From positions 10,734 to 74,733 of the forward strand of contig DATLQA010000233.1 in the NCBI GenBank assembly GCA_035535495.1: a DNA stretch of 64,000 nt, written 5' to 3'. A program made the position numbers and the translations under genes. Source of the DNA: Actinomycetota bacterium. Lineage in GTDB: Bacteria; Actinomycetota; CALGFH01. Below the pieces are notes generated by a model, which saw only the letters and a program-made list of their open reading frames with translations, was not told the DNA's origin and searched no databases. This document shows, in pieces, positions 4,855 to 18,785 of the stretch; within the stretch, counting starts at the first letter, position 1; each line of letters starts with the position of its first letter.

Positions 4855-5921
4855 AGGCGCTGGTCCTGGCCGGCGGCTCTGGCACCCGCCTCCGCCCGAT
4901 CACCCACACCAACGCCAAGCAGCTGGTCCCGGTCGGCAACAAGCCGATCCTGCACTTCGTGCTGGAGTCGCTGGTCGCCGCCGGCGTCGTCGACGTCGGC
5001 ATGATCGTCGGCGACACCGCCGCGGAGATCCAGGCCAGCGTGGGCGACGGCTCCGAATGGGGCGCGGCGGTCACCTACATCCGCCAGGAGGCGCCGCTCG
5101 GCCTCGCCCACGCGGTGCGGACCGCCGAGCGCTACCTCGGCGACGACGACTTCGTCATGTACCTCGGCGACAACCTGATCCTCGACGGCATCACGCCGCT
5201 GGTCGAGGAGTTCCGCGCCGAGCGGCCGAACTCGCAGATCCTGCTCACCCGGGTGCCCGAACCCGAGCGCTTCGGCGTGGCCGAGCTGGGTCCCGACGGC
5301 CGGGTGGTCCGCCTGGTCGAGAAGCCCAAGCAACCGAAGTCGGATCTGGCCCTGGTCGGCGTCTACATGTTCGACCACCACGTCCACGAGGCCACCAGGG
5401 CGATCAAGCCGTCCGACCGCGGCGAGCTCGAGATCACCGACGCCATCCAGTGGCTGGTGGACAGCGGCTACGACGTCCGGCCGCATCTGATCACCGGCTG
5501 GTGGAAGGACACCGGCCGGCTCGAGGACCTGCTGGACGCCAACCGCCAGGTGCTCGACGAGCTGGTCCCCGCCAACCACGGTTCGATCGACGCGGAGTCC
5601 CGCATCGAGGGCAAGGTGGTGATCCAGGCCGGCGCGGTGATCGAGCGGTCGACCATCCGCGGGCCGGCGATCATCGGCGAGCGGACCCGCATCGTCGACT
5701 CGTACGTGGGGCCGTTCACGTCGATCTACTTCGACTGCCTGATCGACGCGGCCGAGATCGAGAACTCGGTGGTGCTCGAGCAGTCGGTCATCAGAGACCT
5801 GCGCCGCATCGAGTCGAGCCTGATCGGCAAGAACGTCGAGGTGGGCCGGTCGGAGGAGCGCCCGCGGGCCTACCGGCTGATGCTCGGCGACCACTCCCGC
5901 GTCGGCGTCGTCCCCGAGTAG
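4851..5921 (+). CDS. rmlA: Glucose-1-phosphate thymidylyltransferase, long form (nucleotidyltransferase domain plus a C-terminal left-handed beta-helix)
   Basis: N-terminal LVLAGGSGTRLRPITHTNAKQLVPV signature. 356 aa. GTG start with a GTGA overlap on the LCP stop codon. Confidence 0.85.
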   Translation: MKALVLAGGSGTRLRPITHTNAKQLVPVGNKPILHFVLESLVAAGVVDVGMIVGDTAAEIQASVGDGSEWGAAVTYIRQEAPLGLAHAVRTAERYLGDDDFVMYLGDNLILDGITPLVEEFRAERPNSQILLTRVPEPERFGVAELGPDGRVVRLVEKPKQPKSDLALVGVYMFDHHVHEATRAIKPSDRGELEITDAIQWLVDSGYDVRPHLITGWWKDTGRLEDLLDANRQVLDELVPANHGSIDAESRIEGKVVIQAGAVIERSTIRGPAIIGERTRIVDSYVGPFTSIYFDCLIDAAEIENSVVLEQSVIRDLRRIESSLIGKNVEVGRSEERPRAYRLMLGDHSRVGVVPE

Positions 5922-6017
5922 CGGACGCCGGCGGCGCTGCTCCTGGCTGACATGGTGCTGCCCGGCCGCCTTGGTGACCGGAGGGCGGCCGGGCAGGAGT
6001 TGGCCGAGGCTGGCCGG

Positions 6018-6572
6018 CTAGGGCGTGGCCTTCGCCGACTCGCGGCGACCGAGCCACAGGGCGGTGCCGCCGGCGAGCAGCAGGCCGACGGCGAACGCCA
6101 GCTCCCAGCCGATGCTGTCGCTGCCGGTCATCGGCAGCGACCCGCAGTTGGTGGCGGCCGTGTCCTTGGCCTGCATGGTCAGGGTCTCGCCCTTCTTGGT
6201 CCAGATGCTCACGTCCACCGTGCGGACACTGCGCAGGTTGGCGTGGACCACCGACGAGACCATGCCGCCGGTGTCGGACTTGACCGACATCGGCTTGCCG
6301 CTGGTGTTGAGCACCTTGCCGTTGGAGAGGTCACGGGCCAGCAGGAGGAGCTGGGAGCTGGCCGGCATGCCCTCGGCCACCACCGCGACGCTGCCGCAGC
6401 TGGTGTTGGAGACGCGCAAGTCCTTGGGTGCGGCCGCGGCGGGCAGGGCGAAGGTCAGCAGCAGTCCGACTGCGAGAACAAGGATCGACCGCCCCGCGGG
6501 CAGGACGACCCCGGTCCGGCGGGCGACTCGCTTCCGTGGTATCGGCTTCATCGTGGTGGCGGTACGTCGCAT
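6018..6572 (-). CDS. Small secreted surface protein with a C-terminal LPXTG-type sortase sorting signal
   Basis: N-terminal signal peptide. C-terminal LPMTG, then a hydrophobic stretch, then an RRESAK tail. The start overlaps the stop of the upstream acidic-protein gene. Confidence 0.6.
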   Translation of the reverse strand: MRRTATTMKPIPRKRVARRTGVVLPAGRSILVLAVGLLLTFALPAAAAPKDLRVSNTSCGSVAVVAEGMPASSQLLLLARDLSNGKVLNTSGKPMSVKSDTGGMVSSVVHANLRSVRTVDVSIWTKKGETLTMQAKDTAATNCGSLPMTGSDSIGWELAFAVGLLLAGGTALWLGRRESAKATP

Positions 6573-8146
6573 CAGGGGCTCCTCCCCGTCCGTCGACAGG
6601 CTCGGGCGTTGGCGCCGTAGTCCTGGATCGACTTGGACAGCCGCTCGTCGCGGATCTTGGCCACCAGGTACGAGATGACCGCGTCGGCATCGTCCATTGC
6701 TTGCGTGCAGGCAGCCGGGGGCGGCGCGTCACGGATCTGCACCACCGGCTGCGGGGCGGCAGGCGGGCTCACCTGCTGCGGCTCGTTGGACCCGATGGCC
6801 ATGCCGATGCCGATGCCGGCGAGCAGCAGCACCAGCCCGGCGGCGACGTTGACCAGCAACCGGCGGCGCCGGCCGCGTGACCGCTTGGCCTCCTCGGTCT
6901 CCAGCCACTGCTGCAGCGCGACCGCCTTGGCCATCGCCACACCGGCCTGGACCTGGAGCGGGGGCGGTAGCCCAGCGGCGCGCTCCTGGGTCGACGGTCC
7001 GCTGGTCGCGGCGGCGACCAGCTCCTTGTCGCCCGCTGGCAGGGGCTCCCCGGCCTGGGCGACCCAGGCGGCGGCCAGGTCGTCGTCCTCCTGGGACGGC
7101 TCCCAGTCCTCGGTGTGGCGCTCGACCGGCTCCGCCTCCGCCGCCGCGGCCACGGCCGGCTCCTCGTCCTCGGCAGCCTCGGCGGGTGGCTCCTCGTCGG
7201 CGGCGGCCTCCACCTCGTCCGCCTCGTCCTGGGCGGCCTCGTCCTCGGCGTCGAGTTGCTCGGCCGCCTCGACCTCGTCGTCCTGGGTGCTGACCGCGAC
7301 GAACTCCTGGGTCTCCGCCTCCTCGTCCTCGGCGGCCTCGGCGGCGAACGATTCCTCGTCCTCGGCGGCCTCGGCGACCAGCAGCTCCTCGTCCTCGTCC
7401 TCGAAGGTCTCCTCGTGCTCGGCCGCCTCGACGGCGACCGGCTCCTCGGCTTCGGCGCCGAACGCTTCGTCCTCCTCCACGGCCAGCGCCTCGGCCGCGG
7501 CATCCTCGTCCTCGTCCTCGGCGACGAGCTCCTCGTCGGCGTCCTCGTCCTCGGCGACGAGTGCCTCCTCGGCCGCAACCTCGGCGTCCTCGTCGTCCTC
7601 GGCGACCAGTGCGGCCTGGTCCTCGACGTGGTTGTTGTGGAGGTCGGCGTCGGCCTCCGCCTCGAACGGCCCGCCGAACCTCCCGGCCTCGGCCGTCGGG
7701 GCCTGCTCGGCGGCCGGCGGGGTGGCCGGGTCGGCGAGGTCGGGGAAGGCCGGTGCCTGCTGGCGGTTCCAGCGGAACAGGCGGCGGTACCTGGCGGCGC
7801 GCTCGGCCACCGACGTCTCCTCCGGCTCCTGCACGCCGGCGATCAGGTCGGCGACCTGGAAGGGGCGGACGAGGAAGCGCCGCTTCGCGTCCGGAGGCCA
7901 GTCGTTCGTGTCCCTGGCGTTGTCGACCGGCACCACCACGCGGCCCTCGTACCGCTGGCGGAGTTCCTCGTAGGCGTCACGCCGGGTGTCGGCGGGGAGA
8001 TCGAGCACCACCGCGTCGATCGCCGCCGCGGAAGCATTTGGCACCTCGGCCGCGGAGCCGAGCAGGGTGAGACCCTCGGGCGTGGGGAGCGCCATGGTCA
8101 AGATCGCGCCAAGCCGATGGTCGCGCGAAATCAGCACCACGTTCAC
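6572..8146 (-). CDS. Membrane protein with four parts: an N-terminal atypical receiver-like (REC) domain, a poly-acidic (Glu/Asp/Ala) low-complexity region of about 230 aa, one TM helix, and a short extracytoplasmic Cys-containing C-terminal domain.
   Basis: REC-like landmarks are present (DAVVLDLP, VVVPVD, KRRFLVRPF), but the acidic pocket is replaced by ISRDHR. TM helix at LLVNVAAGLVLLLAGIGIGMAI. Confidence 0.6.
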   Translation of the reverse strand: MNVVLISRDHRLGAILTMALPTPEGLTLLGSAAEVPNASAAAIDAVVLDLPADTRRDAYEELRQRYEGRVVVPVDNARDTNDWPPDAKRRFLVRPFQVADLIAGVQEPEETSVAERAARYRRLFRWNRQQAPAFPDLADPATPPAAEQAPTAEAGRFGGPFEAEADADLHNNHVEDQAALVAEDDEDAEVAAEEALVAEDEDADEELVAEDEDEDAAAEALAVEEDEAFGAEAEEPVAVEAAEHEETFEDEDEELLVAEAAEDEESFAAEAAEDEEAETQEFVAVSTQDDEVEAAEQLDAEDEAAQDEADEVEAAADEEPPAEAAEDEEPAVAAAAEAEPVERHTEDWEPSQEDDDLAAAWVAQAGEPLPAGDKELVAAATSGPSTQERAAGLPPPLQVQAGVAMAKAVALQQWLETEEAKRSRGRRRRLLVNVAAGLVLLLAGIGIGMAIGSNEPQQVSPPAAPQPVVQIRDAPPPAACTQAMDDADAVISYLVAKIRDERLSKSIQDYGANARACRRTGRSP

Positions 8147-8568
8147 GGCCGTCCCCCCTCAGTGCACACGGCCTGGAAATCTTCCACGTCGCGCTCGTCC
8201 GGCGCGGTCATGGTCGCTCTGATTCCGACCGGCCGAAACACATGCTGACCGGCTGAATTTGTATGCCCAGGTGGTAGGCGTGTCAACCAATACCTGCCGT
8301 ACCGCTGCTCAGCCGTTTGGTTTTGCGGACTCGAATCGGGATCGCGAATCACACTGCTCTGCAATTGCGTAACTATTCCCGCTTCCATCTCGCTCGGATT
8401 GAAGTCCTCGATCCTGTCAAACAGCATTACAAGCACGTGGAAGCCGGGTACACAGCCCGTCCCGGGTCGGCTCAGGGGCCGGCCCGAGGAGTGAAACGGT
8501 CGCTCGTATTGCTTCGGCCGCCCGGCTCTAGGACCCTGCGCACACCTTCACGGCGGGAGGGTGAGCAA

Positions 8569-8705
8569 ATGACCGACACAGGGTCGGTGACCGCGTAGCG
8601 GGAGGTCCGGGGAAAGGGCTCGGCGTGGTGCTCGGCTCGACCGCCTACAAGCTGCTGCACCGCTCGACCGTCCCGGTCCTGGTGGTGCCCGCCAAGCCCG
8701 GCTGA
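8569..8705 (+). pseudogene. Universal stress protein (UspA family) C-terminal remnant
   Basis: The C-terminal about 30 codons read GKGLGVVLGSTAYKLLHRSTVPVLVVPAKPG followed by a stop; this is the typical USP C-terminus. It follows a 9-codon ORF (MTDTGSVTA, with a good SD) in another frame. No N-terminal USP domain is present. Confidence 0.35.
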
Positions 8706-9680: not shown

Positions 9681-10409
9681 ATGATCGACGAGCACGATGC
9701 GGAGCGGGACGGAACGGGGGAGCGGCAGGGGGCGGCCGGGGAGCCGGTGTCCAGCGACACCCCGCCCGCGAGCGAGCTCGTGACCGCTGACGAGCTGGAC
9801 CTGGCGGAGGACGTCGGGCTCGGCGAGGCCGAGCGGGCACTGCTGCGGTGGGCGCTCAGGCAGCGCCAGCGCGCCCCAGGCGAGCCGCTCCTGCCGACCG
9901 GGAACGAGCCGCTCCTGCCGACCGAGGAGCCGACGCCCGACCCGGTGCCGCGGCCGACGCCACCGGCCAGGGCGACACCCACTCCGGCCCCTGAGCCGAG
10001 GCGCGAGGTGGCGCCGATCCCAGCGCCCCGGTCGAAGCCGGTGCGGCTGTGGCCCGAGCCGACCCCCGAGCCGACGGCGGCCCCGGCGCCGGTGCCAAGG
10101 CCCGAGGCGGCTGCCACGAGGGCGGATGACCGGCCCGCCTCTGCGTCGGAGCGGCTCCACAACTCCGCCGAGGAGGCGATCTCCGCCCTGGTCGCCGCGG
10201 GTGGCCCGGACCCACGGGACTACGCGAGCCCGCGCCTGGACCGGCGGGCCAAGATGCTGATCGCGGTCGCGCTGGTGGTGCTGTTGGTGGTCTCGGTCGT
10301 CGGCGGCTTCGTCGGCTACCGCGTGACCCACCGCGCCGCCGGTGCCGGGCCCGAGGCGGTCGGCAGGCCGGCCGGGATCCACGCCGCGCCGGCCAGGCTC
10401 AGCGTGTAG
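9681..10409 (+). CDS. Proline-rich protein with a C-terminal transmembrane anchor (hypothetical)
   Basis: ATG with a GGGAGCAGG Shine-Dalgarno. Pro/Glu-rich region, then a TM helix [22 protein letters not shown]. The upstream part of the 8808..10409 ORF is treated as a GC artefact. Confidence 0.4.
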
Positions 10410-13095: not shown

Positions 13096-15171
13096 ATGGC
13101 GGTCGGAGAGGTTCGTGACATCGACGCCGTGCCGGGCACGACCGGCGAGGCCCAAGCGGAACGCAGGGAGGCGCCCGCGCCCCTGTACGCGGCCGAGGTC
13201 GCCGTCGGCGGGGCCGCGCTCGCGCTCGCCCTGCTCGCCTGGGCCGGCCTCGCGCTCGCCCACGCCCGCCACTACAGCCTCGCCGCCGCCGCCGGCCTCA
13301 CCCTGGTGGCGCTGGCCGTGGTCGTCCTGCTCGCCCGGGCCGGCGCGTCACGGCGTCCCGGTGGCCGCCCGCGGCTGGCGCTCGACCCGCCCGGGCTGGT
13401 CATGGTGGGCGTGCTCGCGCTGATCACCGCGGTCCTGCTCTTCCCCGGCTTCCCCTACGGCGTCGGCGACAAGGACCCTGGCGGCTACGTGTCGCAGGGC
13501 ATCCTCATGGCCCGCACCGGCGACTGGGCGATGAACGACCCGGTGCTCGACAAGGCCCGCATCCCCAGGGTCGCGCTCGCCTCGCCCGGCGCGCGGCTGC
13601 CCGGCCAGTGGATCGAGCACGCCCAGGTCCCGCGCCGCACCATCCCGCAGTTCTACCACCTCTGGTCCGCCGCTCTGGCCAGCGCGTTCGCCGCCGGCGG
13701 CTACACCGGCCTGGCGAACCTCAACCCGCTCTGCGGGGTGCTCGCGGCCTGCCTCGCCGCCCTCGCCGTCCGCAGGGTGTTCGGGCTGGTCGCCGGCTCG
13801 CTGGCCGGCCTGCTGCTGGCCGCCAACATGCTCGAGGTCTGGCAGGCCAAGTACCTGACCAGTGAGGTGTTCACCCAGGTCCTGGTGCTCGGGTCGATCC
13901 TCGGGGTGGTGCTCGCCCTGCGGACCGGGTGGCGCCTGCCCGCCGGCGTGGCCGGGCTGCTGCTCGGGCTCGGCTTCCTCGCCAGGGCCGACGGCCTGGT
14001 CCTGATCCTGATCGCGGTGGGGATCGGCTGCGTGCTGATCGCCACCGGCCGTTTCGACGCCCGCGCCGGCTGGTTCGCCGCCGGCCTCACGCTCACCCTG
14101 CCCCACGGCTTCCTGCAGGCCTACCACTTCGCCAGGCTCTACACCATCTCGGTGAAGCTGCCGGGGGCGACCACGGTGCTCGTGGCCATGGCGGTGCCGC
14201 TCGCCCTGGCGCTCGCGCTGCGCCGCTTCGCCCGGCCGCTGGGGGAGTGGGTGGCCCGCCTGATCGCCGAGCCGCGCGTCCAGCTCCTGGCCGGCGCGGC
14301 CATCGTCGGCCTGGCCGTGCTGCTGCTGGCGGTCGGGTTCCTGCGCCCAAGGCTCTTCGGGATCGACTACTTCAACTACAACGGCCGGGTCATCCGCAGC
14401 TACGACGAGCAGGCCCTCCGCCGCCTGTCCTGGTTCTTCACCCTGCCCGGGTTCGCGCTGATGGTGGCCGGGCTGGCCTACCTCGCCCTGCGCCGCTGGT
14501 CGGCGGCCGCCTGGGCGCTGGTCCTTCCCGGGTTGCTGCTGTTCCCGCTGTACGCCTACGAGGCGCAGAACTCGAGCCGGCTGATGTGGTGGAACCGCCG
14601 CTTCGTGCCGGTGGTGGTGCCGGCGGTGATCATCCTGATCGCGGTGGCCCTGGCCGTCGCCGTGGCCTGGACGGGACGCTGGCGCTGGCCCGTGCGCCTG
14701 GCCGGGCTGGCCGCCACCGGCGCGCTGCTGGCGGTGTTCCTCGGCCAGTCCCTGCCGCTCCGCCACCACCACGAGTTCGCCGGGTCGTTCGAGATCAGCC
14801 AGCGCGTCAGCCGCCTCGCCGGCGACCGCCAGGGCGTGTACCTGTGGCAGTCCCCGGGCGGGCGGCCGGTCTCGGCGACCTCGCTGTTCGCCTCGCCGTT
14901 GTGGCTGCAGGAGGGCGAGATCAGCGCGCTGCTGCCGAGGCGGCCCGACCCCGGCTACGTGCGCTCGTTCGTGCGCGGGTTCCCCGGGCAGCCGGTGTTC
15001 GTGGTGAGCGCGGGCGGCCGGGCCCTCGCCGGCTACGAGCGCGTCGGCCTCCGCCCGGTCGACCGGGTCCGCGCGACCCTGCCGTTCTGGGCCGAGAGCG
15101 ACACCAGCCGGCCGTCCAGGGCCGGCGCGGTCCCGGTCGACTTCACCGTCTGGCGGGTCGCCGGCACGTAG
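13096..15171 (+). CDS. GT-C-fold polytopic membrane glycosyltransferase (putative; probably uses a polyprenol-phosphate-sugar donor). Paralogue 1, 691 aa.
   Basis: About 14 TM helices. The first extracytoplasmic loop carries FPGFPYGVGDKDPGGYV. Conserved MWWNRRFVP and DYFNYNGRVIRSYDEQ blocks are shared with the paralogue at 25299-27374. Confidence 0.7.
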   Translation: MAVGEVRDIDAVPGTTGEAQAERREAPAPLYAAEVAVGGAALALALLAWAGLALAHARHYSLAAAAGLTLVALAVVVLLARAGASRRPGGRPRLALDPPGLVMVGVLALITAVLLFPGFPYGVGDKDPGGYVSQGILMARTGDWAMNDPVLDKARIPRVALASPGARLPGQWIEHAQVPRRTIPQFYHLWSAALASAFAAGGYTGLANLNPLCGVLAACLAALAVRRVFGLVAGSLAGLLLAANMLEVWQAKYLTSEVFTQVLVLGSILGVVLALRTGWRLPAGVAGLLLGLGFLARADGLVLILIAVGIGCVLIATGRFDARAGWFAAGLTLTLPHGFLQAYHFARLYTISVKLPGATTVLVAMAVPLALALALRRFARPLGEWVARLIAEPRVQLLAGAAIVGLAVLLLAVGFLRPRLFGIDYFNYNGRVIRSYDEQALRRLSWFFTLPGFALMVAGLAYLALRRWSAAAWALVLPGLLLFPLYAYEAQNSSRLMWWNRRFVPVVVPAVIILIAVALAVAVAWTGRWRWPVRLAGLAATGALLAVFLGQSLPLRHHHEFAGSFEISQRVSRLAGDRQGVYLWQSPGGRPVSATSLFASPLWLQEGEISALLPRRPDPGYVRSFVRGFPGQPVFVVSAGGRALAGYERVGLRPVDRVRATLPFWAESDTSRPSRAGAVPVDFTVWRVAGT

Positions 15172-15200
15172 CCTGCCCGGCGGACGGTGGCGCCACCGCG

Positions 15201-15548
15201 CTAGTGCCCGGCGCGGGTGCAGGCGTCCCTGGCGCGGGTGTAGCTCGGGCCGTCGACCACGCCGTGCGCGGCGAGCCGGGCGGCCTCCGCGCACGCCGGG
15301 CTCTCGACCGGACGGGGCGGGGTCGGGTCGTCGGCGAAGTACCTGACGGCGAGCTGCGCGAAGATCCAGAACAGCGCGCCGACCATGAGCACGCTGACGA
15401 TCCGCGGCCGGGCCACCTTGGTGCCCGCAGCCTCGTGCGCCCACAGCGGCAGCCGCCGCTTGGCGTGATCCCATTGCGGCCCCCCCGGCCGGAGGATCAG
15501 GACCAGCAGCAGGACGATCGCGATGAAGCCGAGGGTCCCAGAGTCCAT
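15201..15548 (-). CDS. Small two-TM membrane protein (hypothetical)
   Basis: 115-aa ORF with two hydrophobic helices. Convergent with the GT-C gene and divergent from the SpoIID gene. Confidence 0.35.
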   Translation of the reverse strand: MDSGTLGFIAIVLLLVLILRPGGPQWDHAKRRLPLWAHEAAGTKVARPRIVSVLMVGALFWIFAQLAVRYFADDPTPPRPVESPACAEAARLAAHGVVDGPSYTRARDACTRAGH

Positions 15549-15820
15549 GGTTCAGGCTCGCGCCAGGTTCGCCTGATGTCAACCAGTTCGCGCGGTTCGT
15601 GAGCGCTGTCGGCCGTGGCCGGGGGGAGCGGCTCGGCGCCTCGACTCCGACCGCACCGGCCGCCGGGCGGAGCGAGTTCAACCGCCTCAAGACCGGCCCC
15701 TGACCGCCGGCCGGAGCCGGCATCCCCGGCCCCGGCCTGAGACGCGGTGTTCAAGTCACCCCTTCCGGACGCCGACCCTCCAGCTTGTTCACGACCAAGC
15801 TGTCGGGGAGGTCCGGTTCC

Positions 15821-17215
15821 ATGCCCCGCCGTTCGCGCTGGCCTGCCCACATCCTGCTGCTGGCGACCGTCGCCGCCCTGCTGGGCGGGCCCACCGCGGT
15901 CAGGCCCGCCGCGCTCGCCGCTGACCCGTCCGCATCCGATCCGTTCGCCCCGGCGCCGGGCCGGCGGCCGGCCGCCCAGGCACCGGCACGGGCGCCGGCC
16001 GCGGCGCCGGCAGCCTTCCGCATCAGCGGCGGCGGCTACGGCCACGGGGTCGGGATGGGCCAGTACGGCGCCTACGGCATGGCGCTGCGCGGCCGGTCCG
16101 CCGCCGCGATCGTCGGCTTCTACTACGGTGGCGCGGCGGCGCGGAGGGTGGCGCTGCCGGCCGCCATCCGGGTCGGCGTCCTGCAGGCGCCCCGCGACCC
16201 CAGCACCGGCGGGCGGCTGACCAGGGTCCTGGTCCGCGGCCTGCGCCTCCCCGGCCACCGCTCCACCGGCACGATCGCCGCCGGCGGGATCGGCAAGCGG
16301 CACCAGGCCATGGCGAAGGGCCTGCCAGCCAACGTCACCTACGCCGTCCGGCCCGACCGCGGCGGGGTCTCGGTGTTCGCCGGGTCCAAGCGGGTGTTCG
16401 GGCCGACCTTGGCTGGCACCGGGGTCCGCATCCGCTACCAGGAGGGCATGCGCCTGCCGGCCCTGCTGTCGATGCCGCAGGCCGGTCGGACGCTGCGCTG
16501 GGGCCGGCTGGAGGTCAGCCTGGTCCGCGAGCGGAGCGCCTTCCGGCTCCGCGCGGTCGTGGTGATGGCGTTCAACACCTACCTCCGCGGTCTGGCCGAG
16601 ATGCCGAGCTCATGGCCGGCCAAGGCGCTCCAGGCACAGGCCATCGCCGGGCGCAGCTACGCCCTGGCCACGGTCCGCAAGGCCGGCCAGCACCGCGCCA
16701 GGTCCCGCTGGGACGGCTGCGACTGCGGCGTCTACGCCAGCGTCCGCGACCAGAACTGGATCGGCTGGTCCAAGGAGGCCGGCCCGTCCGGCGGCCGCTG
16801 GGTGGCGGCGGTGCGGGCCACCGGCTCGCTGGCGGTGGTCTGGCGGGGCCGGCTGGTGCAGGCGTTCTACTCGTCCTCGTCCGGCGGCCACACCGCCGCG
16901 GCCACCACCTGGGGCGGGCCGAGCCTGCCCTGGCTGCCCGCCCGCGCCGACCCGGACGACGCCGTCCGCGGCCACAACCCGAACCACCGCTGGACCGTCG
17001 TCCGTTCGGCCGCGAACGTCTCGGCCGCCCTCCGCCGCTACCACGTCGGCACGGTCGTCGGCCTCCGGGTGAGCCTGGCCGACGGCTCCGGACGCGCCCG
17101 CTCCGTCCAGGTCCGCGGGACGGCCCGGAGCGTGACCCTCGCCGGCGGCACCTTCCGCAGCCTGCTCCGGCTCAAGTCCACCAGATTCCGGATCGCCCCC
17201 GTGGCCACCGGCTGA
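15821..17215 (+). CDS. SpoIID/LytB domain protein (peptidoglycan hydrolase / amidase enhancer family)
   Basis: Signal peptide plus the SpoIID signature GYGHGVGMGQYGAYGMA. The start is taken at the internal ATG before the signal peptide. Confidence 0.8.
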   Translation: MPRRSRWPAHILLLATVAALLGGPTAVRPAALAADPSASDPFAPAPGRRPAAQAPARAPAAAPAAFRISGGGYGHGVGMGQYGAYGMALRGRSAAAIVGFYYGGAAARRVALPAAIRVGVLQAPRDPSTGGRLTRVLVRGLRLPGHRSTGTIAAGGIGKRHQAMAKGLPANVTYAVRPDRGGVSVFAGSKRVFGPTLAGTGVRIRYQEGMRLPALLSMPQAGRTLRWGRLEVSLVRERSAFRLRAVVVMAFNTYLRGLAEMPSSWPAKALQAQAIAGRSYALATVRKAGQHRARSRWDGCDCGVYASVRDQNWIGWSKEAGPSGGRWVAAVRATGSLAVVWRGRLVQAFYSSSSGGHTAAATTWGGPSLPWLPARADPDDAVRGHNPNHRWTVVRSAANVSAALRRYHVGTVVGLRVSLADGSGRARSVQVRGTARSVTLAGGTFRSLLRLKSTRFRIAPVATG

Positions 17216-17267
17216 CCCTACCGCTCTGGTCCACCGGCCGCCCGCACCGACATGGAGGTCCTGCCCG

Positions 17268-18785
17268 TTGCCCCGGTCACCGCTCACGCTGCTCCGCCGC
17301 CTCGCTACGGCCGGCCTCGCGTTGTCACTCGCGGTCGCGATCGTGGCCGACCTCGGCCCGCCGCGGCCGTCCGCCCCCCGGCCCGGTCCCGGCACCGTCA
17401 AGGACGTGCCCCTGTCGTTCGCCACCGGGTCGGTCGCCGGCCGCCTCGGCGGCGTCGAGCCGGCCCGCCTTCAGGCCACCGCCGGCCAGCGCGGCAGCTG
17501 GACCTCCGCGCCGGTCCCGCTCAACGGCGCCCGCATGGTCGGCCTCTCCTGGCGCAACACGCCGCACGGGCCCTGGACCGTGATCGACGGTGCCGGCGTG
17601 TGGCTGCGGACCAGCACCGCGAGCGGATGGTCGGGCTGGAGCGCGGCGGAGCCGGCCGACGACGGCCCCGACCCTGGCAGCGCCGAGGACCACCAGCAGC
17701 GGGTCTTCTCCGACGCGGTCTGGCTGCCTGCCGACACCAACGCGGTGCAGGTCAGGGTGGACCTGCCCGGGTACCACACCGCCAGCGTGGAACGCCTCAA
17801 CGCCCACCTGGTCTCCCCTGACCCGTCCCCGCTCGTGCCAGACCAGCCGCCACGGGGCGCGGCGGTCGCGGCGACCGCCAAGCCCGCGATCATCTCGCGC
17901 GCCCGCTGGGGTGCTGACGAGCGCCTGCGCGGCGGCCCGCCCAGCTACGCCGACACCGTGAAGGCCGCGTTCGTCCACCACACCGCGCAGAGCAACCGCT
18001 ACAGCAAGCGCGAGAGCGCCGCCCTGGTCAGGGCCGACTACCTCTACCACGTGCGCACCAGGGGCTGGAACGACATCGGCTACAACTTCCTCATCGACCG
18101 CTTCGGCCAGGTCTTCGAGGGCCGCGCCGGCGGGGTCGACCGTCCGGTGATCGGGGCGTGCACGGCCGGGTTCAACACCCGCACCAGCTGCGTGGCGCTG
18201 CTGGGCACGTTCAGCACCAGCAGGCCGCCGGCGACGAGCATGGCGGCGCTGCGTCGGCTGCTCGCCTGGAAGCTCGACCTCACCCACGTCGACCCGGCCT
18301 ACACCACCGTGCTGACCAGCGCCGGCGGGTCCACCAGCCGCTACCGCCGCGGCACCAGGGTGCGCCTGCGGACCATCAGCGGGCACCGCGACACCTCGTT
18401 CACCAGCTGCCCGGGGGCCAGGGTCTACTCCAGCATCACCGGCCTCCGGGTGGCGGTCGCCGCCCTCGGCGGGCCGAAGATCTACGGCGGCGCGACCAGC
18501 GCGGCGACTGTCAACCCTGGCACCACCCGGGTCGGGCTCCCGCTCAGGTTCAACCGGACGGTGCGCTGGTGGGTCAAGGTCGCCGCGGCCGACGGGCGCG
18601 TCATGCGGCGCTGGGCCGGCATCAGCCGCGCCACCCGGATCGTCTGGGACGGCCGCGACGCCCACGGCCAGGCCGCCGTCGCCGGCCGCGCCACCTTCAC
18701 CGCCACCGCCATGGTAGGTGGCCGGCGCGCCCGGCCCCTGACCGCCTCGGTGCTGGTCGGGGGGGCGACCACGACCCAGGAGTAG
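17268..18785 (+). CDS. Secreted N-acetylmuramoyl-L-alanine amidase (Amidase_2 / PGRP domain) with an N-terminal extension
   Basis: Signal peptide. Amidase_2 core: ISRARWGADE, FVHHTA, GWNDIGYNFLIDRFGQVFEGR, CTAGFN. Confidence 0.8.
   Translation: MPRSPLTLLRRLATAGLALSLAVAIVADLGPPRPSAPRPGPGTVKDVPLSFATGSVAGRLGGVEPARLQATAGQRGSWTSAPVPLNGARMVGLSWRNTPHGPWTVIDGAGVWLRTSTASGWSGWSAAEPADDGPDPGSAEDHQQRVFSDAVWLPADTNAVQVRVDLPGYHTASVERLNAHLVSPDPSPLVPDQPPRGAAVAATAKPAIISRARWGADERLRGGPPSYADTVKAAFVHHTAQSNRYSKRESAALVRADYLYHVRTRGWNDIGYNFLIDRFGQVFEGRAGGVDRPVIGACTAGFNTRTSCVALLGTFSTSRPPATSMAALRRLLAWKLDLTHVDPAYTTVLTSAGGSTSRYRRGTRVRLRTISGHRDTSFTSCPGARVYSSITGLRVAVAALGGPKIYGGATSAATVNPGTTRVGLPLRFNRTVRWWVKVAAADGRVMRRWAGISRATRIVWDGRDAHGQAAVAGRATFTATAMVGGRRARPLTASVLVGGATTTQE

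Follow-up and report, generated by a model that had tools for sequence, protein, structure and literature searches.

A predicted membrane-anchored pseudo-receiver protein encoded in an operon with a small LPXTG protein in uncultured Actinomycetota

Receiver domains of the CheY-like (REC) type require an acidic pair, a Thr/Ser and a Lys for the chemistry of phosphotransfer, and a 2025 review (PMC12632262) defines pseudo-receivers as domains that are recognised as receivers yet lack residues needed for it; according to the same review, they are common, but their working mode in bacteria is largely unknown. Among sortase substrates, the LPXTG protein GspA of Actinomyces oris is glycosylated by LcpA (PMC6381275), and small membrane proteins such as SafA modulate actinobacterial sortase (PMC9282373). 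The subject here is a pair of adjacent genes in a 64-kb stretch of DNA from an uncultured member of the Actinomycetota (contig DATLQA010000233.1, positions 10,734 to 74,733; hereafter the window): gene X, encoding 524 amino acids (aa) with a predicted pseudo-receiver domain at the N-terminus, and gene Y, encoding a 184-aa LPXTG protein (Table 1). A preliminary description made from the DNA alone had reported both open reading frames (ORFs), which are present in the ORF list of the window with the motifs given for X (DAVVLDLP, VVVPVD, RRFLVRPF and ISRDHR); its single transmembrane helix, its Cys-containing tail of about 70 residues, its Glu/Asp/Ala-rich region, the overlap of the X stop with the Y start and the sortase-substrate character of Y are all borne out below.

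The REC-like character proposed for the N-terminal domain of X is supported by the agreement of a profile alignment with a structure model, which together predict a (beta-alpha)5 CheY-like REC fold. A profile of the first ~118 residues, built from 43 sequences, matched almost exclusively response-regulator receivers among PDB sequences, in end-to-end alignments (CpxR best, E = 1.6e-7; RegX3, YycF and KdpE around 1e-5). The AlphaFold2 model made on the same alignment (pLDDT 86, pTM 0.82) shows the order b-a-b-(a)-b-a-b-a-b-a, the second helix (alpha2) being degenerate, and receivers make up nearly all of its top 50 Foldseek matches in the PDB (AdeR, CpxR and PmrA; probability 1.00, TM-score 0.55-0.67), with the atypical receivers of CpaE/TadZ and FrzS also among the structural matches. 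This homology surfaced only with the family profile and not in direct sequence searches: the full 524-aa sequence gave nothing meaningful against Pfam, NCBIfam or PDB sequences, the window protein had no hit at E ≤ 1 in Pfam with the minor pseudo-receiver families included, and PF00072 detected none of 100 relatives at E ≤ 0.01. The relatives themselves were reached by an exhaustive profile search, which returned 204 clusters at 50% identity, compared with only 5-7 from word-index searches.

Four of the five catalytic REC positions are substituted in the X family. Asp49 (in DAVVLDLP) aligns with the phospho-acceptor (Asp51 of CpxR) and is Asp in 97 of 100 relatives. The positions of the metal-binding acidic pair are occupied by Ser7 and Arg8 (Ser in 64 and Arg in 55 of the 100), the Thr/Ser position at the end of beta4 by Val74 (Leu or Val in 96), and the Lys position at the end of beta5 by Arg94 (Arg in 99, followed by Pro in all 100). 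The earlier remark that ISRDHR stands in place of the acidic pocket is correct, and the acceptor Asp is retained; the residue after the pair (DD+1) is Asp in 70 of the 100 relatives. Arg55, Arg63 and Gly68 are near-invariant and specific to the family. With a predicted receiver fold, homology to receivers and at least one catalytic residue missing, the X domain falls within the pseudo-receiver definition. Because the Mg-binding pair, the Thr and the Lys are lost, its action most likely relies on protein-protein or ligand contacts and not on phosphorylation.

At the other end of X, the best hydrophobic segment (residues ~430-452) is a single transmembrane helix preceded by RSRGRRRR, which by the positive-inside rule places the N-terminus in the cytoplasm and predicts an N-in/C-out topology. 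The first Gly of its G-x-x-x-G motif is invariant and the second is conserved in at least 90% of 25 diverse members. The 72 aa that follow contain Cys480 and Cys517, part of a C-x36-C element with the consensus C..A...AD.AISYLV..IRD.RL......Y......C(R/Q), in which both Cys, the L and the R-L are invariant and the I and R-D nearly so in the same 25 members. A profile of the transmembrane helix and C-x36-C module had no match in the PDB, and the C-x36-C element had none in Pfam. Its Cys spacing and residue pattern suggest that it is probably a disulfide-stapled helical hairpin.

Gene Y begins within the stop codon of X (TGA at 6574-6572, ATG at 6572-6570; TGATG, one shared base), and this start is supported by the N-terminus MRRT common to the Y homologues, of which 43 were aligned. 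The alignment also shows a basic n-region, a hydrophobic core and AxA before APKDL, the putative cleavage site, and a conserved LP(M/L/R)TG sorting signal. The C-terminus reads LPMTG-SDSIGWELAFAVGLLLAGGTALWLG-RRESAK and scores 16.9 bits against TIGR01167 (curated cutoff 15.9); no other sorting signal occurs in the window. The domain of ~95 aa between these ends is modelled by AlphaFold2 as a seven-strand beta-sandwich (pLDDT 85.6), and only two residues separate Cys143 from LP(M/L/R)TG. Foldseek returned generic FN3, reeler and enediyne-chromoprotein folds with TM-scores of ~0.5, from which no function was drawn, the matches being generic to the immunoglobulin (Ig)/FN3 type; a weak NCBIfam match to "enediyne chromoprotein" (E 0.06) was likewise put down to the shared beta-sandwich, and Tat-type export was discarded, since homologues do not conserve the RR pair. 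A sortase gene, which the preliminary description suggested looking for beside the pair in other Actinomycetota, was not found in the window: its 64 kb contain no ORF with the TLxTC motif. The 66 relatives of Y all come from Actinomycetota metagenomes or metagenome-assembled genomes (MAGs).

The head and the membrane helix of X are joined by a linker that is extremely acidic in the window protein (residues 161-350: 31% Glu, 27% Ala, 14% Asp, net charge -84; -90 across residues 161-395). Both X and Y have the pattern GC1>GC2<<GC3 (GC3 0.93), the coding signature expected at ~72% genome GC, and in X it is present in each block of 50 codons, acidic part included; the overlapping antisense ORFs have atypical patterns. 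In the DNA, the acidic region is built from imperfect tandem repeats whose periods of 6, 9, 15, 18, 24, 27 and 33 nucleotides (nt) are all multiples of three. Within the window clade, residues 1-135 and 395-524 are almost invariant while the middle is full of in-frame indels, and the conserved C-terminal module stays in frame across homologues of 364-524 aa. Since the frame is always kept, the acidic stretch is evidently translated. It is absent from P0004 (225 aa) and P0005, in which the N-terminal domain is joined straight to the transmembrane helix and Cys tail, and nearly all of it is missing from P0073, which is 79% identical overall to X. Among the representatives of 23 full-length clusters, linkers range from 52 to 300 aa and are usually rich in Ala/Pro/Arg/Gly, commonly with a net positive charge. 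Strong negative charge is restricted to the clade of the window (-50 to -68, with about -90 for the window protein); two more distant clusters have moderately negative linkers (-18 and -30). By this comparison, the acidic stretch is a lineage-specific, repeat-driven elaboration of a predicted disordered tether rather than a conserved functional element. The family thus illustrates cleanly, in nature, how the length (0-300 aa) and charge (about -90 to +19) of a disordered tether can drift between two end domains that remain fixed. A short linear motif R-L-S-(S/T/P)-(D/E/G)-E-(P/S/N)-L-W-(D/E) recurs in the cytoplasmic linkers, otherwise unconserved, of many distant homologues of full length (P0077, P0082, P0084, P0093-P0097 and P0103), and the window clade carries the possibly related EDWEPSQEDDDLAAAW.

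On long contigs with Y homologues, an X homologue of 351-495 aa lies directly upstream with a gap of 4-5 nt, and hidden Markov models of the modules found the N-terminal domain and C-terminal module followed by the LPXTG domain in loci L001-L005 and L011, so that the gene pair sought in other Actinomycetota was recovered. The shared neighbours on one side are an LCP gene and rmlA in convergent orientation, and those on the other are a cysteine-dioxygenase-type cupin gene, an unannotated gene and rmlD. A horizontally inserted island was considered and rejected: the GC and GC3 of X and Y are typical of the genome, the same gene order is found in L001-L005 and L011, and the lower-GC stretch of ~500 bp upstream of X (8147-8640), earlier described as a low-GC gene-remnant island beside an inserted accessory unit, aligns with the same regions of other loci as a conserved putative promoter and leader region. 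Judged from gene order and composition, X and Y form a chromosomal two-gene operon, inherited vertically and served by its own putative promoter, in an uncultured lineage of soil Actinomycetes. Only three loci turned up when species-representative genomes were scanned, each of them in a MAG of uncultured Actinomycetes/Actinomycetota, and cluster look-ups returned "hypothetical protein" or no name, except for one fragment labelled "GAF domain-containing protein".

More distant homologues of X (N-terminal domain ~35-43% identical) retain C-x36-C with no adjacent Y (L006, L008, L009/L010, L014). The homologue in L006 (4920-7804, plus strand; 43% identical) is directly preceded by genes for a GAF-histidine kinase and a NarL-type regulator, with a convergent Lon protease gene after it and no LPXTG gene, a context that hints at a link of the pseudo-receiver family to two-component systems; those in L008, L009/L010 and L014 stand alone. 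In L012 (1381-1713, plus strand) and L013 (1059-1391, plus strand), two independent samples, a Y homologue overlaps the stop of a 42%-identical X homologue by 4 nt and has LPRTG and the transmembrane segment but neither a signal peptide nor the first ~19 profile positions; it is probably a decaying copy. The N-terminal domain also occurs without the C-terminal module, often followed by one transmembrane helix and a different C-terminal part, or fused to GAF (5 of 100 relatives), Bac_transf, DUF4012, Rce1-like or large polytopic proteins, the last with no Pfam domain (examples of fusions are P0152, with 1412 aa and 21 members in its cluster, P0139, P0148, P0160, P0184 and P0156/P0179). It therefore has the look of a cytoplasmic module, regulatory or adaptor in kind, that is reused mainly on membrane and envelope proteins, and the LPXTG partnership is, by this distribution, a feature of one X clade. 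P0085, a metagenomic protein of 277 aa, has the C-terminal half of X (everything from ...EDWEPSQEDEDLAAA onwards) behind an N-terminus resembling a short-chain dehydrogenase, and is either an assembly chimera or a rearrangement.

X may be an N-in/C-out adaptor or sensor linking the envelope to the cytoplasm. Its extracytoplasmic hairpin, held on a Pro-rich stalk, would read a wall-associated cue, which in the window clade could plausibly be the co-translated, wall-anchored Y: sortase would attach the presumably disulfide-bracketed Ig/FN3-like domain to peptidoglycan almost without a stalk, which would position it at the point of attachment. The disordered linker would tether the pseudo-receiver head flexibly to the membrane, and the head would relay its state by contacting cytoplasmic partners of envelope biogenesis or two-component signalling. 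Taken as a whole, with Y as a plausible cue and an output free of phosphotransfer, this account has in our estimate about an even chance of being right, and the anatomy of X and Y is far more certain than contact between them or the output. The earlier interpretation, which as a whole is partly upheld, had likewise proposed transmembrane signalling or scaffolding by a receiver-like module with a sortase-displayed partner. Several observations weigh against the adaptor account. No cytoplasmic partner of X emerged; Y is unlikely to be a universal ligand of the C-x36-C element, because Y-less homologues conserve that element equally well; the near-invariance of the acceptor Asp is odd for a domain that would never use it, and the conserved Asp at DD+1 could partly stand in for the acidic pair; and all relatives come from metagenomes or MAGs and are almost all unnamed or "hypothetical".

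The translational coupling and conserved adjacency of X and Y, together with the convergent LCP gene and rmlA beside the pair in every syntenic locus, would also fit a dedicated biogenesis, sorting or retention factor, by which X would hold or position the LPXTG precursor, while embedded in the membrane, for sortase or for LCP-dependent glycosylation without signalling inward; GspA glycosylation by LcpA and sortase modulation by SafA are precedents. This we consider rather unlikely, since X homologues exist without an adjacent Y, a pure chaperone would have no obvious use for the conserved REC-fold domain in the cytoplasm, the window lacks a TLxTC sortase gene, and the LCP/rmlA adjacency may be merely inherited synteny. 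If the head were instead a genuine atypical phospho-acceptor, X would be a membrane-tethered response regulator or a phosphate sink served by a histidine kinase, as the conservation of the acceptor Asp (97%) and the DD+1 Asp (70%), the kinase and regulator genes of L006 and the label "NarL/FixJ family response regulator" given to one relative by JGI might suggest. The family-wide replacement of both metal-binding acids, the Thr/Ser and the Lys, residues needed for phosphotransfer according to PMC12632262, the failure of PF00072 to detect any of the 100 members and the lack of a kinase gene beside the pair in the window, L001-L005 or L011 make this quite unlikely. An anti-sigma-factor-like single-pass regulator, which would sequester a transcription factor and release it on an envelope cue, shares the overall topology of a cytoplasmic N-terminal domain, one transmembrane helix and a small extracytoplasmic sensor, and a sigma-70-family gene lies divergently upstream of X in L001/L002. 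As X has no zf-HC2/RskA-type signature and no Pfam or NCBIfam match, neither the window nor L003-L005 or L011 has a sigma gene next to the pair, and the predicted fold is REC and not an anti-sigma domain, this identity was rejected as very improbable.

Two further readings turn on the acidic region. Its extreme composition, with a net charge of about -84 over 190 aa, had led the preliminary description to offer a cation-binding polyanionic envelope protein, and it could be imagined as the functional heart of a cation-binding or polyanion-mimicking protein. The region is predicted to be cytoplasmic, since it is N-terminal to the transmembrane helix on the side of the positive cluster and X has no signal peptide, which argues against a polyanionic envelope protein; it is also missing or nearly so in P0004, P0005 and P0073, and most of the 23 full-length clusters have Ala/Pro/Arg/Gly-rich linkers in its place, so that this reading is extremely improbable. 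The low-complexity repeats might equally betray a non-coding artefact or pseudogene, an objection that the preliminary description had itself raised; it is effectively refuted by the conserved frame, kept across many indels, and the unbroken coding pattern and repeat periods leave it a virtually negligible chance. To return to the adaptor account, its most far-reaching form, in which X and the stalk-less Ig-like Y are a new pair of membrane receptor and wall-tethered ligand reporting the state of the cell wall, and the N-terminal domain is a new actinobacterial pseudo-receiver family serving as a shared regulatory handle on envelope-biogenesis proteins, is in our judgement unlikely; if true, the distance, integrity or turnover of peptidoglycan would be reported to the cytoplasm without phosphotransfer.

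Table 1. Features of the X-Y locus, with positions in the window
Feature	Position	Strand	Basis or remark
-35-like hexamer TTGACA	8281..8286	-	TTGACAC invariant upstream of X in 5 homologous loci
-10-like hexamer TACAAA, 17 nt downstream of -35	8258..8263	-	conserved in 4 of 5 loci
Conserved leader of ~105 nt with G-rich Shine-Dalgarno sequence (GGGGGG) before GTG	8147..8257	-	conserved blocks, e.g. CTGGTTCGACCGGTC.GGA
Gene X, 524 aa, GTG start, stop included	6572..8146	-	ORF, coding signature, 204 homologous clusters (50% identity)
X residues 1-110, predicted cytoplasmic pseudo-receiver (REC-fold) domain	7817..8146	-	
X residues 111-160, conserved basic segment (AARYRRLFRWNR) and Pro/Ala linker	7667..7816	-	conservation in close relatives, composition
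X residues 161-350, poly-acidic Glu/Asp/Ala low-complexity region, net -84, hypervariable	7097..7666	-	composition, repeats, indels
X residues 351-395, second variable linker segment (SQEDDDLAAAW...)	6962..7096	-	clade comparison
X residues 396-430, conserved juxtamembrane helix (QAGVAMAKAVALQQWLETEE) and positive cluster RSRGRRRR	6857..6961	-	nearly invariant in clade
X residues 431-452, transmembrane helix with conserved G-x-x-x-G	6791..6856	-	hydropathy, 25-member alignment
X residues 453-479, predicted extracytoplasmic Pro-rich stalk	6710..6790	-	length varies; Pro/Ala/Thr-rich in all members
X residues 480-517, invariant C-x36-C element (CTQAMDDADAVISYLVAKIRDERLSKSIQDYGANARAC)	6596..6709	-	25-member alignment
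Shine-Dalgarno sequence GGAGGAG for Y, within 3' end of X	6579..6585	-	sequence; 6 nt before Y ATG
Gene Y, 184-aa LPXTG protein, ATG start	6018..6572	-	ATG shares one base with X TGA
Y residues 1-47, signal peptide with long basic n-region, putative AxA cleavage site before APKDL	6432..6572	-	43-homologue alignment
Y residues 48-145, predicted 7-strand Ig/FN3-like beta-sandwich between invariant Cys59 and Cys143	6138..6431	-	AlphaFold2, Foldseek, alignment
Y residues 146-184, LPMTG, hydrophobic helix and RRESAK	6021..6137	-	TIGR01167
13-bp GC-rich hairpin between convergent Y and rmlA, terminator-like, without U-tract	5958..5996	-	minimum free energy fold

The promoter call for X rests on conservation across loci, which makes TTGACA/TACAAA a putative promoter; a consensus scan upstream of X called no sigma-70 site, the scanner having missed it because the -10 hexamer deviates from consensus. 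Conservation across five loci extends far beyond the hexamers (8147-8440, minus strand, ~63% GC), with the blocks CAATTGCAG, GATT, CGATTCAA and TACGGC upstream of the -35, and these and the leader blocks could be operator sites or a structured leader. An Rfam search of the locus, leader included, gave chance-level matches only. A 97-aa ORF overlapping the X start (8143-8436, minus strand) was rejected as a gene, since the homologous loci show 1-nt indels. The region of the hairpin downstream of Y (5925-6025) folds with a minimum free energy of -52.1 kcal/mol (z = -2.6).

The wider neighbourhood in the window is concerned with the envelope and encodes LPG-synthase-like, LCP, RmlA and RmlD proteins, methyltransferases, an acetyltransferase, a SpoIID-like protein, an amidase and a GT2 protein. 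Just upstream of rmlD lies a Pro-rich ORF of ~240 aa with a C-terminal transmembrane helix and no Pfam match (9684-10409, plus strand), and in L001, L003 and L011 the place between cupin and rmlD is likewise taken by an unannotated gene. A few kb from the operon, a 691-aa ORF without a Pfam match is followed by SpoIID-like and Amidase_2 (N-acetylmuramoyl-L-alanine amidase) genes in a peptidoglycan-remodelling cluster (13096-18785, plus strand). In L001/L002, which represent one lineage, a sigma-70-family gene with an extra BFN (bifunctional nuclease) match (5247-6380, minus strand) and a NUDIX gene are placed between the cupin gene and X, divergent from the latter.

The poly-acidic stretch, the most conspicuous feature of X, proved to be a spacer that the family can do without, and the interest of the locus lies in its pseudo-receiver family, which comprises ~200 clusters at 50% identity, is apparently confined to uncultured Actinomycetes/Actinomycetota, is membrane-anchored or fused to envelope enzymes, and in one clade is hard-wired to a sortase substrate. 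The practical limit for work on X and Y is the lack of any known cultured host; the pair nonetheless gives concrete, testable access to signalling or scaffolding that proceeds independently of phosphorylation at the cell envelope of actinobacteria. The architecture of pseudo-receiver, disordered linker, G-x-x-x-G transmembrane helix and C-x36-C element, with or without an LPXTG partner, was not found in the domain libraries searched, nor in the pseudo-receiver literature searched, the excerpt of PMC12632262 included; the family of X has no Pfam or NCBIfam model, and the suspicion in the preliminary description that it belongs to no described family stands.

Compared with REC/CheY-like domains (PF00072), the X head has the same predicted fold, yet is not detected by that model, carries Ser/Arg for the acidic pair, Val/Leu for the Thr and Arg for the Lys, has a degenerate alpha2 and invariant residues of its own (R55, R63, G68), and is linked to a transmembrane helix and extracytoplasmic element rather than to a DNA-binding or enzymatic output. 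It resembles the bacterial pseudo-receivers of CpaE/TadZ and FrzS (reviewed in PMC12632262) in combining a receiver fold that lacks phosphotransfer residues with a presumed protein-protein mode of action, and differs from aspartate-less receivers in keeping the acceptor Asp. Y shares with the LPXTG proteins of TIGR01167 and the GspA/LcpA/SrtA system of A. oris its signal peptide and the succession of LPMTG, hydrophobic helix and basic tail, and its gene adjoins an LCP gene in a glycopolymer locus, but it is unusually small for an LPXTG protein, with a single Ig-like domain of ~95 aa. Anti-sigma factors and ToxR-like bitopic regulators share with X an N-in regulatory domain, one transmembrane helix and a small extracytoplasmic sensor, whereas X has neither an anti-sigma nor a DNA-binding domain and most of its loci have no cognate sigma gene. 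The pseudo-receiver family of X is itself undescribed, and its parts, namely the receiver fold, the pseudo-receiver concept, the LPXTG substrate and the Ig-like domain, are of known kinds.

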